Shown: in pieces, positions 39,349 through 48,491 of the stretch | Layout of the letters: each line of letters begins with the position of its first letter | Position numbering within the stretch: position 1 is the first letter of the stretch | Sequence record: NC_054928.1 | Length of the DNA: 64,000 nt | Reading direction: 5' to 3' (one strand) | DNA from: Escherichia phage vB_vPM_PD112 | Position numbers and translations under genes: made by a program | Notes under the pieces: model-generated | The model's input: the letters and a program-made list of their open reading frames with translations, nothing else | Told to the model about the DNA's origin: nothing | Database searches by the model: none

Positions 39349-39822
39349 TTATTTGAACGATTTAACGTACTGAATAGAACCTTTACTATTCACGAAAGCG
39401 ATTTTACCATTTTTATTATACATGGTAGCAGTACGCTGATAACCATAAGTTTGTTTACCAGATTGATAACCAACTAATGCGAAATTATCTTCACCCATTT
39501 TATTCTGTTTAGCGCGAATACGTTCATGTCCATGCGCCATAAGAACCTTAGCATCACCAGTTGCAATGGATCGACGAGTTTTTTCATCTTCAACTGTATT
39601 AACAAAATCATCAAATGAATCAAATTTAGCATGAGATTTATTATACAGTTTTCCATCTACTGCATAATTATATCCCTGTACATCCATCTCAACTTCTGTG
39701 CCATCATCTAATACAGCAGTAATTTTCTGTCCTTTTTTAAATTTCAAAAGATCAGTAAAAGATTCAGCAATAATTTGAGAATTAATAGCTGCTTCAGTAA
39801 TAAATTCTTGATATGTTTTCAT
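39349..39822 (-). CDS. capsid internal protein (IP) with N-terminal capsid-targeting sequence
   Basis: N-terminus MKTYQEFITEAA is the T-even IP targeting leader; early promoter upstream; 157 aa. Confidence 0.7.
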   Translation of the reverse strand: MKTYQEFITEAAINSQIIAESFTDLLKFKKGQKITAVLDDGTEVEMDVQGYNYAVDGKLYNKSHAKFDSFDDFVNTVEDEKTRRSIATGDAKVLMAHGHERIRAKQNKMGEDNFALVGYQSGKQTYGYQRTATMYNKNGKIAFVNSKGSIQYVKSFK

Positions 39823-41715: not shown

Positions 41716-42089
41716 CGTGATTCCTTAACAAATTTCATAATTTCATCAAATTCATACGCAGCAAGTTTAAGCTGATGTTCTTTTTTAATCTTTTTGCACT
41801 GGGCTTTCCACTCACGTACGCGTTTACGATAATGTCTTCCTTGATACCAGTATCCTACCCAATTTACAGGTACTAATAAAAGCGGAATTATTAATGGAAG
41901 AATTAGTGTTGCTCCAAATATTGCACCAGATTCAATATCAGTCATAACGTCTATAACCATTCCAGCAATCAGCAGAATCACAAATGATACAGCTACCACA
42001 GGACCTATTAATACATCAGTAGGAATTAGCTGACGCTTTAGTTCATACTTCACAGGTTTACTTGGAAGGTATAGTGATGGCTTTGACAT
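41697..42089 (-). CDS. membrane protein, same tail-motif family (e.4 position); probable ATG at 42089
   Basis: Two TM segments; C-terminus MKFVKESRCKSQN. Confidence 0.5.
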   Translation of the reverse strand: MSKPSLYLPSKPVKYELKRQLIPTDVLIGPVVAVSFVILLIAGMVIDVMTDIESGAIFGATLILPLIIPLLLVPVNWVGYWYQGRHYRKRVREWKAQCKKIKKEHQLKLAAYEFDEIMKFVKESRCKSQN

Positions 42090-42666
42090 ATTCTCTACAT
42101 TCCTTAACAAATTTTTCTAGTAATAAATCGCTTTCAAAATTAGGATTTTCCACGAATTTATCAAAAAGATCATCAACAATAGTCAAGATATTCTTTTTAC
42201 TAAGAATACGCTTATTTTCATATTTTGTTTCAGAATCAACTATAAGAGTAAAGAAATATTTCTTTCCCTGAAATTTTACCGTAGTATCAATATAGAACAA
42301 ATTTGACTTTTGTAAATTACGTTTAAACCATGCGTCACTTAAACTATAAACGCCAAGATAATCATAATCGTCGTTTAAATAACAAACTGTCCATTCAGGA
42401 GAAATGAAATCAGTAAATTCAACATCAAAATCACACGTCAATGAATGAATTGATTCAATACTTTTAATGAGTATTCCAGGGCGTATTAAAGACTTTTTAC
42501 CTCTATAAAATCTTCCAGAAAGACTTTCATCAGTTTCATACGAAGAGCCCCAATAGTAATTACGTCCTTCTGCCATACGTTTAAGAGCATTTAGTAATTG
42601 GTCTGGAACATCAACTTGTCTTTGGAACTCTTCAAACATTGAATTGAAATCATTTTGCATTCTCAT
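42058..42666 (-). CDS. soluble protein carrying the same C-terminal motif (e.5 position)
   Basis: 202 aa; C-terminus EKFVKECREYVKAITIPSK. Confidence 0.5.
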   Translation of the reverse strand: MRMQNDFNSMFEEFQRQVDVPDQLLNALKRMAEGRNYYWGSSYETDESLSGRFYRGKKSLIRPGILIKSIESIHSLTCDFDVEFTDFISPEWTVCYLNDDYDYLGVYSLSDAWFKRNLQKSNLFYIDTTVKFQGKKYFFTLIVDSETKYENKRILSKKNILTIVDDLFDKFVENPNFESDLLLEKFVKECREYVKAITIPSK

Positions 42667-42707: not shown

Positions 42708-43301
42708 TTATTTCAGAGAATTAATATATTCCTGGACATCGGCAGAGGTGGTTTCAACCCCAGAAATATTACCATTAAAGGTTTCAACTCGAGCAAGAGT
42801 ATCTTCAATATCAACCTTGGTCAGTGCTGCAATTTCAACTACATCATCAGCAGTACTAATTCCAAGGGCATTTGCCGCACGAGTTTCACGGATATATTCC
42901 AATTTAACTGCAAGTTCTTGGCGAGCATCATCTAACTCAACTACTTTCTTGGCGATTTCAATTCGCATTTCAGCATAACCATCAGCTTTAGTAGTCAACT
43001 GCTCAGCTGTTCGACGATATAGTAAACCGAGCTTAGCATGCATTGTTACATCTTGACCTTCGGAAAGAAGTTTGCGAATTTCACGCTCTTTTGATTCGGC
43101 TTGTCGATTCTTTTCGATAACAAGTTCACGAATACGTTTTTCTTCATTAATAGATTTAACAGAAGCAGTTTTTAGGTCTTTAATTTTATCAAGAAGTTTT
43201 GCTGCTGCAGCAGTATACTGTTCTTCGACAGATAGATTTTTAGCCATAGCAGAACCAAGTTTAGTGCGAATAAACTCAACAATTTTCTTCAGTGTGTTCA
43301 T
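42708..43301 (-). CDS. coiled-coil protein, possibly PspA/IM30-like (e.6 position)
   Basis: 197 aa, predicted helical coiled coil throughout; composition resembles PspA. Confidence 0.35.
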
Positions 43302-43344: not shown

Positions 43345-43875
43345 TTATATCCCATTATTTGAGAGATGTAAACTATTTTTAATTTTACAAATTCGTTCAG
43401 CTTCATCGATAGCAGCATTAATAATGCTTTTAGCTATAGGAGTACTAATACTAGTAGCTTTTACACTTAACACGATTTCTTTATCTTTACCAGGCCAACC
43501 CCACGATTTTTCACCGTGAGTGCCTTTAATTACAGCAGACACCTCAAGTGAGCATCCATTATCACATGTTTTTACATTAACAACCCAAGGGTCACTTTTC
43601 TCAATCGGTTTCTCAATCGGTTTATCCCAGTAAATATTAAGAATACGTGGAACATCAAATTTGGCAGGACAAATCTTAACCGTAAGACCTTCGCTTTCTA
43701 GCCAATTAATAAGAGGGCGTTCATACAGGCGACGATGTGGGCTTGGGATTCGACAAGCCTTATGTCCGTTGCTTGCGGCTTCACTAAGCTGTTCTAATAC
43801 CTGCTTTTGCATTATTGATAAAATACCATCAAAAGATTTTTCGGAAGTTTCATTCAGTTCAGTATAAAGAGACAT
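43345..43875 (-). CDS. hypothetical protein (e.7 position)
   Basis: 176 aa ORF. Confidence 0.45.
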   Translation of the reverse strand: MSLYTELNETSEKSFDGILSIMQKQVLEQLSEAASNGHKACRIPSPHRRLYERPLINWLESEGLTVKICPAKFDVPRILNIYWDKPIEKPIEKSDPWVVNVKTCDNGCSLEVSAVIKGTHGEKSWGWPGKDKEIVLSVKATSISTPIAKSIINAAIDEAERICKIKNSLHLSNNGI

Positions 43876-43930: not shown

Positions 43931-44194
43931 TTATTTCATATTATTGAAATATTCTTCTGCGATTTCGTCGTTATCGTGGTAAACTTTAGAAGACAGTTTA
44001 ACATAACCTTCTGCTGTGAACATGTTAATCACAACCTTTACAGTATACCACTGACCATCTTCATTACCCATTACTGCGTAAGTTTCAAACATCGGATGGT
44101 CAGGACCGATAACTTTAATATCATTCACTGTACGACCGAAATCTTCTGAAACGCATTTCATAAAGAAGTTGAACAGCTCACCGTAATTATCCAT
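43931..44194 (-). CDS. hypothetical protein (e.8 position); probable ATG at 44194 behind GGAG RBS
   Basis: ORF; track version overlaps the promoter so start moved. Confidence 0.45.
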   Translation of the reverse strand: MDNYGELFNFFMKCVSEDFGRTVNDIKVIGPDHPMFETYAVMGNEDGQWYTVKVVINMFTAEGYVKLSSKVYHDNDEIAEEYFNNMK

Positions 44195-44268: not shown

Positions 44269-44403
44269 GTTTTGTGAAAAAATTTTTAAAAAGTTTTAGG
44301 GAATTCTAGGGCGGGGAGGGGCAATTAAAAGATAGGATAATATATTATAAAGGGTATAAACTAAATGATGCCTAGAGAGGTCCAGAAAGGCCTAGATACC
44401 AAA

Positions 44404-44427
44404 AGCCCCAACCTTTCGGCTGGGGCT
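44404..44427 (-). terminator. intrinsic terminator
   Basis: agccccaacctttcggctggggct hairpin plus U-run on minus strand. Confidence 0.6.
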
Positions 44428-44434
44428 AAGAATG

Positions 44435-44908
44435 TTATTTGATTTGTTTAGCAGACCAAATGCGGTCTTTGATAATTTTTTGGATGTCTTCAACATATTC
44501 AAGAGAGTGAACATGTGGGTTATCTTTGAAACTATAAGCACGAGCTAACTTTTGGCCTTCAGTTTTGATTACTAAAAGCTCTTTAAGGATAGCTTCATAT
44601 CTGGAGATAATTCCTTTAACGATATTTTTCTCTTGTGTGACTTTAGGATCTGCTTTAGGAGCAGGTTTACCCGAAGCCTTTGCAAAAGCAGCGCCAGTAG
44701 CAACTAAACTTTTCCAGGCCATACTAACTGCATTTCCCGTAAATCCTTCTGCTTTCATGTCGCGAGCAAACTGGAATCGTGATTCGTCAGAAGCATCTTT
44801 ATAGGAATATTTACCCGCTGCAATGGCTGCTTTTGCGACAGCTTGAATTTCGGTGCTAGATGCTTCATTTAACACCGCTTCATTTAAAAATTGAGCATAT
44901 GATTTCAT
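44435..44908 (-). CDS. internal-protein-like gene with capsid-targeting leader
   Basis: N-terminus MKSYAQFLNEA parallels the IP leader MKTYQEFI.EA; 157 aa, Ala/Lys-rich. Confidence 0.55.
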   Translation of the reverse strand: MKSYAQFLNEAVLNEASSTEIQAVAKAAIAAGKYSYKDASDESRFQFARDMKAEGFTGNAVSMAWKSLVATGAAFAKASGKPAPKADPKVTQEKNIVKGIISRYEAILKELLVIKTEGQKLARAYSFKDNPHVHSLEYVEDIQKIIKDRIWSAKQIK

Positions 44909-44960
44909 CTTATTTCCTGTTCTAATTCGTGGATTTAATATATTATATTTATACTAAAAA

Positions 44961-44982
44961 GCCCCAACCTTTCGGTCGGGGC
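44961..44982 (-). terminator. intrinsic terminator downstream of the tRNA/stable RNA cluster
   Basis: gccccaacctttcggtcggggc hairpin plus U-run on minus strand; copy of the 44404 hairpin. Confidence 0.6.
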
Positions 44983-45029
44983 TAAGCCTTGCGGCAACCT
45001 TGTAGGGGTTCCACCTGCTAAGGCAAGTG

Positions 45030-45300
45030 TTTGTACGAAACGCCGGGATTCGAACCCGGTTATTAAGTAGTTGACGCTACTCAATATTTTTAAAAGGCCA
45101 TATCTCGACCATATCCGAACGTTCCGTCAAAAACGCTACTCGGCTTACGGCAAAGATATTTCCTCGAATCGATAATTTGGTGCGCCGTTTCTGCTGTGAT
45201 GTAAGAGGGCATCAACAAATCATAAAGATTTATTAACACAATTCCTTACCCAGGGAACATCAGTCCGACGACTTACCGGTAGCGACCCGGTTTCTTGTTT
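45030..45300 (-). ncRNA. stable small RNA region (T4 species 1/2-like RNAs); boundaries approximate
   Basis: No ORF; tRNA-like T-arm GGTTCGAATCC and long complementary stems between the terminator and tRNA-Arg. Confidence 0.35.
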
Positions 45301-45377
45301 GGTCGAGGCAGAAGGATTCTAACCTTCAACCAACGGATTAGAAATCCGTTGCTCTATACAATTGAGCTATGCCCCGT
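45301..45377 (-). tRNA. tRNA-Arg (anticodon UCU)
   Basis: Hand-folded cloverleaf on minus strand, 7 bp acceptor stem, CCA encoded. Confidence 0.7.
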
Positions 45378-46592: not shown

Positions 46593-47201
46593 TTATTTAT
46601 TACGTGAAAAAGATTGTTCTATCAATTCTGGACACTTTCGTTCTATCCATTTTCTAGCTTTTTGTGGGCTTATACCTATTATTTTAGCAGCTTTACTAAC
46701 CCATCCAAATTTAGAATAATCGATTTTAACTAATTCTTCGTAAATTTCATCAGTTAAAATCTTTTCATTAATATTTACCAGTAAATGATATAATTTATTA
46801 TCATTAGCAATTTTAATGAATCTTTTATAGTTTCCGCCTTTACTTAAACCTAATGAAGTAATTGCAGATGATATAGTAGCCGAATTTAATAGTGCGTTTA
46901 AAATTTCTTCATCACTAACATTATAACGCTTTTTATTATTTTTAATATTTTTACCAGCAAAAGTATCAGTTTGCGAATGGCAATTTGGACATAATAATCT
47001 TAAATTTGATTTAAGATGATTTTTGTTATTTCCATCAATATGGTCTAATTGCAGAACAATATGCTTATTTTGCCATTTTGAAATTTTACAAATTGCGCAC
47101 TCATATGGAAAAATATTTTCTTTTATTATTTTATCTTTCAGCTTTCCTGTACTAAAATTTGGATGTTTTCCTTCAAAAATTTCAGCTAATTTAGTATCCA
47201 T
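46593..47201 (-). CDS. HNH homing endonuclease (Mob-like); probable ATG at 47201
   Basis: HNH motif LQLDHIDGNNKNHLKSNLRLLCPNCH; ends 7 nt from tRNA-Leu. Confidence 0.65.
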   Translation of the reverse strand: MDTKLAEIFEGKHPNFSTGKLKDKIIKENIFPYECAICKISKWQNKHIVLQLDHIDGNNKNHLKSNLRLLCPNCHSQTDTFAGKNIKNNKKRYNVSDEEILNALLNSATISSAITSLGLSKGGNYKRFIKIANDNKLYHLLVNINEKILTDEIYEELVKIDYSKFGWVSKAAKIIGISPQKARKWIERKCPELIEQSFSRNK

Positions 47202-47311
47202 AATATGATTCCCAATTATTAACAAAGGCTCTCAAGCAAGAACCCTTGATGATAGAGGGTATTAATCAGTGCGATATGAGTTAATAATAACAAATAATTC
47301 TTAAAGCATAT

Positions 47312-48233: not shown

Positions 48234-48491
48234 TTATTTTAAATCTTCTAATCGTTTCTTCATCTTAGAACCGTTCTTAGCGATTTCGCCTGCATCAGAG
48301 CATAATGCTAAAAGCGCTTTAACTTTAGTTTGGTCTCCTTTAAAAGATGAAGGATCGACTGCAGCAGCAAGTTCTTTAATACGAGAGAAAAGACGCTCAG
48401 CTTCAGCTAAAGCCATTCCAAGCTTTACTTCCATACCATGAGAAGATTCAGTAATAGTAGTTTTTGTAGCAAACTCTTTGAAAGTTTTCAT
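48234..48491 (-). CDS. internal protein at the ipI locus (leader MKTFKEF)
   Basis: 85 aa; IP-type leader; position immediately before 57B as for T4 ipI. Confidence 0.6.
   Translation of the reverse strand: MKTFKEFATKTTITESSHGMEVKLGMALAEAERLFSRIKELAAAVDPSSFKGDQTKVKALLALCSDAGEIAKNGSKMKKRLEDLK

Follow-up and report, generated by a model that had tools for sequence, protein, structure and literature searches.

Does the reading frame between e.8 and the tRNA gene cluster of Escherichia phage vB_vPM_PD112 encode a protein that travels in the phage head, and what might such a protein do? The question was raised by a first-pass annotation of 64,000 nucleotides of this genome (NC_054928.1; hereafter the window), which placed the frame at 44435-44908, quoted its product as starting MKSYAQFLNEA, read this start as the capsid-targeting sequence of T-even internal proteins, and took the gene for an extra, lineage-specific one with no counterpart at this position in T4. 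The window is a segment of a Tequatrovirus (T4-like) genome. Both the coordinates and the quoted start agree with its listing of open reading frames, and alignment to T4 confirms the position between e.8 and the tRNA cluster. The features discussed below are collected in Table 1.

Table 1 Features of the rnaC-e.8 interval and of related or neighbouring genes, in window coordinates
Feature	Position	Strand	Remarks
Ip4 homologue	39349..39822	-	starts MKTYQEFITEA; phrog_3155 'internal virion protein'; ipII/ipIII locus; second leader-bearing gene
e.5	42058..42666		counterpart of a gene depleted in Bas37
e.6	42708..43301		counterpart of a gene depleted in Bas37
176-aa ORF	43345..43875	-	replaces e.7
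e.8 homologue	43931..44194	-	downstream flank; 255/264 nt identical to T4
30-nt direct repeat, downstream copy	44401..44430	-	cassette terminator; 93% identical; stem 44404-44427
Whole ORF	44435..44908	-	stop codon included; phrog_2280 match
Predicted long antiparallel helical hairpin	44438..44632	-	residues 93-157; residues 88-155 in the AlphaFold model
Lys/Pro/Ala-rich linker	44633..44683	-	residues 76-92; low model confidence
Predicted small helical N-terminal domain	44684..44860	-	residues 17-75; residues 18-71 in the AlphaFold model; the region shared most widely within the family, with motifs GKYSY and AWKS
FLNEA-VLNEA tandem repeat	44861..44890	-	residues 7-16
AVLNE	44864..44878	-	codons 11-15; 5-residue tandem repeat of FLNEA; second L-x-E motif
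Leader MKSYAQFLNE	44879..44908	-	codons 1-10; capsid-targeting-sequence-like; Y4, F7, L8 and E10 present
AGGA (Shine-Dalgarno)	44915..44918	-	6 nt before ATG
TATAAATA (T4 late-promoter consensus)	44946..44953	-	directly after the T-run of the upstream terminator; ends 37 nt before ATG
30-nt direct repeat, upstream copy	44957..44986	-	intrinsic terminator of the tRNA/rnaD/rnaC transcript; stem 44960-44983
rnaC (species 1 RNA)	45034..45172	-	upstream flank; 138/139 identical to T4
tRNA-Arg	45300..45376		beyond rnaC and rnaD
210-aa ORF	46593..47225	-	at the T4 tRNA-Gln position
Ip5 homologue	48234..48491	-	starts MKTFKEFATK; phrog_3499 'internal head protein'; ipI locus; third leader-bearing gene; counterpart of a gene depleted in Bas37

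A conserved gene of T4-like phages between rnaC and e.8

The frame is an ATG ORF of 157 aa on the minus strand, with the N-terminus MKSYAQFLNEAVLNEASS and a precursor mass of 17.3 kDa. Its DNA is 99.8% identical to that of phage vB_EcoM_CE1, and its protein is 99.4% identical to RB32ORF133c. Comparison with four orthologues (from RB32, UTI-E4, RB27, and a Mosigvirus) gave dN/dS values of 0.02-0.13 at dS up to 2.2, from which it follows that the gene is real and subject to purifying selection. The protein matches the profile phrog_2280 ("unknown function") over residues 1-157 with E = 2.9e-60, and RB14ncORF136c, P0011, and P0019 match the same profile. Sequence-profile searches against Pfam, NCBIfam, and PDB returned nothing significant, and 1.84 billion cluster representatives searched with a profile yielded no more than 13 relatives, each of phage type.

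The rnaC-e.8 interval matches 760 phage records, 451 of which are covered over at least 80% of the interval, cassette included, while tblastn finds the ORF protein in 510 phage records. The gene is syntenic across Tequatrovirus, Mosigvirus, and Jiaodavirus, with a distant relative in a Yersinia phage and a weak one in a Serratia phage (Foldseek E = 5.5e-3); some distant relatives carry a different C-terminal module. A gene present in some 450-510 phage records and syntenic in three genera is not lineage-specific, as had been supposed. Its wide distribution makes it old and widespread, and the classical phages are the exceptions. Approximately 100 names of family members were inspected, and apart from a single UniRef entry, 'Internal head protein', from Klebsiella phage KPKp, they consist of "hypothetical" and "uncharacterized" labels.

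Some copies are frameshifted or truncated (93-111 aa, or matched by tblastn in two pieces), namely P0006, P0008, and P0009 as well as those of fPS-65, vB_EcoM_FJ1, and 235Ecol030PP; these decayed copies are consistent with a dispensable accessory gene that is lost in some lineages. In a 2.9-kb Logan contig, a 94-aa protein (P0014) joins the N-terminal part of a Trna.3 homologue, in the same reading frame, to the C-terminal 32 residues of the ORF protein, which implies a natural deletion over trna.2, the whole tRNA cluster, segB, and rnaC/rnaD.

The N-terminus resembles the capsid-targeting sequence of internal proteins

Mutagenesis of IPIII showed that the first 10 residues are enough for packaging, with targeting mainly via residues 4 and 7 and processing via residues 8 and 10; gp21 cuts after L/I-x-E (review PMC9026906). 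All four mapped positions are kept in the ORF, which has Y4 and F7 at the targeting positions and L8 and E10 at those of gp21 processing. When the leader is aligned with those of the T4 internal proteins, the similarity seen in the first pass holds, with 6/11 identities to IPII/IPIII and three conservative changes among the 5/11 positions that differ.

The first 11 residues of frames in the window were scored against the leaders of IPII, IPIII, Ip4, Ip7, and Ip9. By this score the ORF ranks second among 528 ATG frames of at least 50 aa, the Ip4 homologue standing above it and the annotated Ip5 homologue below; these two are the other leader-bearing genes of the window. The exact tail probability of the score is 2.7e-7 per N-terminus, so that approximately 1.4e-4 such frames would be expected by chance in the window. 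A relaxed regular expression for the leader was run on the window and on the loci of T4, RB32, T6, T2, one Mosigvirus, and one Klebsiella phage, where it matched annotated ip genes, members of this family, and unannotated ORFs at the two ip-locus positions of the Klebsiella phage, and nothing else. By alignment, by score, and by functionally mapped residues, the match to the T-even capsid-targeting sequence is upheld.

The leader is conserved in the family. In an alignment of 12 members that share 26-83% identity with the window protein, M1 and F7 do not vary, at least 90% have L8, and position 4 is always Y or F; F7 and L8 stay invariant or nearly so even among relatives at 26-39% identity. 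All 19 leader variants among 77 retrieved sequences fit the pattern, bar two mis-started entries. The leader shares no more than 22 of 33 nucleotides with ipIII, so the conservation lies at the protein level. This nucleotide count, together with the lack of similarity upstream, led to rejection of the idea that another ip gene had recently donated the leader.

The gp21 motif is present as L8-N9-E10/A11 and a second time as L13-N14-E15/A16, with a small residue after each. Residues 5-15 have pLDDT below 50 in the AlphaFold model, which fits an exposed propeptide. The FLNEA-VLNEA tandem repeat doubles the cleavage motif; some alleles are without it (MKSYAQFLNEASASDVR), and others have a shorter leader (MKSYAEFLTEQ).

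The predicted mature protein is basic and helical

Cleavage would leave a mature product of 142-147 aa (15.6-16.1 kDa, pI about 9.6, 19 Lys, no Cys), starting with AVLNEASSTEIQAVAK after a cut at E10 or with ASSTEIQAVAK after a cut at E15. It contains a single internal L/I-x-E site (LKE, residues 108-110). The AlphaFold model of the ORF protein (mean pLDDT 75.7) predicts a small helical domain and a long helical hairpin separated by a Lys/Pro/Ala-rich linker, whose composition is kept across the family and whose sequence is not. For the C-terminal hairpin the family has at least one alternative module, and fold searches with the model returned generic hairpins only.

The named internal proteins resemble each other in the leader only, and those from ip4 onward were reportedly defined by Repoila et al. 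in 1994. Between the mature part of the ORF protein and Ip1-5, Ip7, and Ip9, no similarity was detectable (hhalign probability at most 3%). Ip8 and Ip10 come from descriptions of the ipI locus, and the RB32 annotators worked with those sequences and gave the ORF no name; a search for ip4-10 sequences in the supplements of Silas et al. found none.

The gene forms a self-contained cassette, and T4, T2, and T6 have a single-terminator site

On the minus strand, rnaC is followed by a terminator hairpin, TATAAATA, AGGA, the ATG with the ORF, a copy of the terminator, and the e.8 upstream region, and alignment to T4 places rnaD and then tRNA-Arg beyond rnaC. The gene is a self-contained cassette of terminator, TATAAATA, Shine-Dalgarno sequence, ORF, and terminator repeat. 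The annotators of RB32 noted a "34 bp imperfect direct repeat" and named Ip4, Ip5, Ip7, and Ip9, leaving the ORF hypothetical.

The octamer TATAAATA was dropped as evidence by itself, its count in the window being equal to chance (11 observed vs 11.06 expected). Its placement directly after the terminator recurs in the window, in RB32, in RB27, and in a Klebsiella Jiaodavirus with otherwise unalignable flanks, and versions with one mismatch are found in the Mosigvirus copy and before the 187-aa neighbour described below. Canonical ip genes have no TATAAATA within 90 nt upstream, and for this reason the regulation of the gene is probably unlike theirs.

In T4, T2, and T6, the site has a single terminator hairpin, and the junction is exactly as expected from deletion of the cassette. 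A tblastn search with the ORF protein found no match in these three genomes, so T4 has no such gene here, in agreement with the first-pass annotation. The three sites look like deletion products, from which a 556-nt cassette may have been lost by recombination between the terminator copies.

The site accepts more than one cassette

In RB14, the same site holds a different ORF of 187 aa, RB14ncORF136c, which starts MKTYAEFLTEA. BLAST aligns it with the window protein in the leader only; it is a phrog_2280 member and shares a C-terminal helical region with the window protein (hhalign probability 72%). The 187-aa gene occurs in 165 records, often in tandem and downstream of the 157-aa gene (UTI-E4; IMG/VR contigs), each tandem gene with its own promoter-like motif and terminator; it was sought in the window and is absent there. 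Across phages the site holds zero, one, or two leader-bearing genes, the 187-aa type standing alone or in tandem, and one IMG/VR contig has the site empty. In the Klebsiella phage scanned for the leader, ORFs that carry it stand at the ipI position, at the rnaC-e.8 site, and next to e.

An IMG/VR contig of 170,336 bp (L013) carries, behind the same terminator and TATAAATA, a 184-aa membrane-like ORF (MKLLKYLSWILLVPLDFISMILAVILAPF...) that has no leader. The idea that the site is exclusive to internal proteins was rejected on account of this contig.

The rnaC-e.8 site is a hotspot for presumably late cassettes, mostly but not exclusively of leader-bearing genes. The picture of an "extra" gene in an otherwise fixed map has to give way to that of a site with variable content. 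Silas et al. (2025) count two Ip loci (PMC12373910); the rnaC-e.8 site looks like a third, so far unrecognised, internal-protein locus.

Two further ORFs nearby lie where T4 has other genes. The 210-aa ORF has a weak HNH match (Pfam E = 0.005), homology to T4 ends exactly at the 5' end of tRNA-Leu, and ARAGORN finds seven tRNAs in the window, none of them for Gln. The ORF recurs in Bas37 under the label 'putative homing endonuclease', and it looks like a homing endonuclease in place of a tRNA gene. The 176-aa ORF has no Pfam match and replaces e.7, a replacement that the RB32 annotation records for RB32ORF130c.

Transposon data from Bas37 and anti-restriction precedents

Phage KarlGJung (Bas37) carries an orthologue, bas37_0244, that is identical to the window protein at 152 of 157 residues (97%). 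This orthologue is dispensable on K-12 BW25113, where 29 of its 34 TA sites were disrupted and it was classed as non-essential (HIDEN-SEQ preprint 2025). In the HIDEN-SEQ host comparison, covered here for four isolates, its log2FC was -0.11 on CFT073, -0.30 on CFE299, -0.14 on CFE303, and 0.00 on CFE331, with an adjusted p of 1 throughout; these data record no fitness effect of the gene on K-12, which has McrBC, or on the four UPEC clinical isolates. A null phenotype in these five hosts is compatible with inhibition of a host defence and lends it no support, neither favouring nor excluding it.

The adjacent bas37_0243, of the 187-aa type (KarlGJung locus L019, 1501-2064), had one of 48 TA sites disrupted and was classed as 'Essential' (HIDEN-SEQ). 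Its mean insertion count is 0.2 vs about 430-660 in both flanking genes. The class was given although T4, T2, T6, and the window phage are without the gene, a point on which the authors are silent; toxic truncated products, a phage-specific dependency, and a technical artefact are possible explanations. Three other Bas37 orthologues were strongly depleted in the comparison of K-12 with CFT073 at an adjusted p of 0, namely those of Ip5 (bas37_0261, log2FC -2.09), e.5 (bas37_0239, -3.62), and e.6 (bas37_0240, -6.49). This depletion hints at host-specific roles of Ip5, e.5, and e.6.

To our knowledge, all internal proteins characterised so far (Ip1, Ip2, Ip3, and Bas37_0260) inhibit type IV restriction enzymes. 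Ip1, Ip2, and Ip3 each inhibit a distinct GmrSD, while ip4-10 gave no reproducible GmrSD inhibition, and therefore a leader is no guarantee of an anti-GmrSD role; another five GmrSD systems that act against T-even phages are still without a known inhibitor (PMC12373910). Bas37_0260, a leader-bearing protein from the ipI locus, inhibits McrBC (HIDEN-SEQ preprint).

Discussion

We consider it likely that the product of the ORF is an internal head protein of T4-like phages that had not been named before, and for it we infer late transcription, packaging, cleavage, and injection. An autonomous late cassette would have entered the genome immediately behind the terminator that closes the tRNA/rnaC transcript. 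The first 10 residues of its product would serve as a capsid-targeting sequence and bind the gp22 scaffolding core during prohead assembly, where gp21 would cut after Glu10 and/or Glu15, both in the context L-N-E/A. The resulting basic, Lys-rich protein of approximately 15.6 kDa would then stay in the head with the DNA and be ejected with it into the cell. A polymorphic cassette locus and dispensability in the laboratory, both traits of ip genes, are found for this ORF; the traits of the prohead scaffolding core (gp22, gp67, gp68), which is required for assembly and receives many gp21 cuts, are not. A literature search for virion proteomics or an N-terminal sequence of any family member, covering RB32ORF133c, fHe-Yen9-01, the fPS phages, and Tequatrovirus proteomes, found none.

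The closest known precedents, T4 IPII and IPIII, share with the ORF the leader pattern (MKTYQEFIAE/A against MKSYAQFLNE/A, with an aromatic residue at position 4, Phe at 7, and L/I-x-E at 8-10), small size, dispensability, and a place in a variable region close to e and to the tRNA genes. They differ in their unrelated mature sequence, in their locus (that of the ORF being rnaC-e.8), and in the late-promoter consensus, which lies directly upstream of the ORF and is missing from the 90 nt before canonical ip genes. IPII and IPIII are inhibitors of two distinct GmrSD type IV restriction enzymes. The window's own Ip4 is likewise a 157-aa protein with a leader and is an internal virion protein in the RB32 and PHROGs annotation, but its similarity to the ORF protein stops at the leader and its gene lies downstream of e, at the ipII/ipIII locus.

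Within the family, the 187-aa protein (RB14ncORF136c, RB69ORF148c-149c, bas37_0243) has the same insertion site, a matching leader (MKTYAEFLTEA), membership of PHROG 2280, a K/P/A-rich middle, and the C-terminal helical region in common with the 157-aa protein. Its N-terminal domain, however, is unrelated by BLAST, its terminator is its own and different, and in the Bas37 HIDEN-SEQ data it is the 'Essential' member of a pair in which the 157-aa gene is non-essential. Bas37_0260 (Ip6-like, 77 aa) offers another parallel: it too is a hypothetical protein with a leader, from a Tequatrovirus other than T4, and was recognised via its N-terminal signal, and it demonstrates that unnamed leader-bearing proteins can inhibit type IV restriction. 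It differs from the ORF in its origin at the classical ipI locus, in its sequence, which is unrelated, and in a phenotype that has been demonstrated, whereas the ORF orthologue in Bas37 showed none in the hosts covered here. What is new here is a probable internal protein from a locus that earlier counts of ip loci do not include.

As to function, neutralising a host defence at DNA entry would be the likeliest role, since the characterised leader-bearing proteins (Ip1, Ip2, Ip3, and Bas37_0260) all block type IV restriction enzymes; we put this forward tentatively, at somewhat less than even chances. The defence targeted would most plausibly be a type IV restriction enzyme. The dN/dS of approximately 0.1 does not bear the mark of a fast arms race and counts against an anti-defence reading.

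Two other accounts of the gene deserve consideration. The ORF product might be an accessory of the prohead core or a DNA-condensing protein, targeted to the scaffold, perhaps bound to DNA via its K/P/A-rich linker, and active in head assembly or DNA packing instead of against a host defence. Such a role would suit the predicted all-helical fold with its long helical hairpin, the linker composition conserved across the family, the strong purifying selection, and the contacts that lysines of T4 internal proteins make with DNA phosphates (PMC3012670), as well as the 'Essential' class of the family neighbour bas37_0243 in HIDEN-SEQ and, in the data for four isolates, a bas37_0244 with no host-specific phenotype. 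We nevertheless find it unlikely: T4, T2, and T6 build heads without the gene, bas37_0244 is dispensable, and the mature part has one internal L/I-x-E site only, as against core proteins that are cut into many fragments.

Improbable, too, is a late cytoplasmic protein that is never packaged, with a leader-like start owed to shared ancestry or recombination of translation-initiation regions and devoid of targeting function. Differences from IPII/IPIII at 5/11 leader residues speak for it, as do the literature search that turned up no virion evidence, a promoter layout unlike that of canonical ip genes, and the late cassette without a leader at the same site in one contig. Yet the residues conserved down to 26% identity are exactly the four for targeting and cleavage, the leader is only 22/33 nucleotides identical to ipIII, and a second, different protein with the same leader occupies the same site. 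That the ORF is a mere chance frame in an intergenic insertion and no functional gene, as its label of hypothetical in hundreds of records might invite one to think, is refuted by the selection analysis (dN/dS 0.02-0.13 at dS up to 2.2) and has next to no probability given a frame conserved across several genera, the phrog_2280 match at E = 2.9e-60, and a Shine-Dalgarno sequence and terminator of its own.

An internal head protein at this site, our preferred reading, bears on T4-like phages at large. The family is found in most sequenced T4-like phages, including therapy phages and phages of the BASEL collection, and is labelled hypothetical almost everywhere; it is absent from T2, T4, and T6, the three model phages that supplied the definition of internal proteins. 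Its recognition offers screens one more candidate for an injected effector and a third cassette locus, for which the naturally "empty" T2, T4, and T6 are ready-made test beds. The capsid-targeting sequence has been used to load foreign proteins into T4 heads, and if the leader described here is functional, the known sequence tolerance of that signal would be widened.

A more far-reaching possibility, which we regard as speculative and on balance doubtful, is that rnaC-e.8 is a third ip locus of the Tevenvirinae and that phrog_2280 proteins are injected inhibitors of defences outside the cover of Ip1-3 and Bas37_0260. If this is true, each of the five GmrSD clades that act against T2, T4, and T6, and for which no inhibitor is known, would be a candidate target, and the absence of the gene from these three phages could explain part of the difference in host range between them and most wild T4-like phages.
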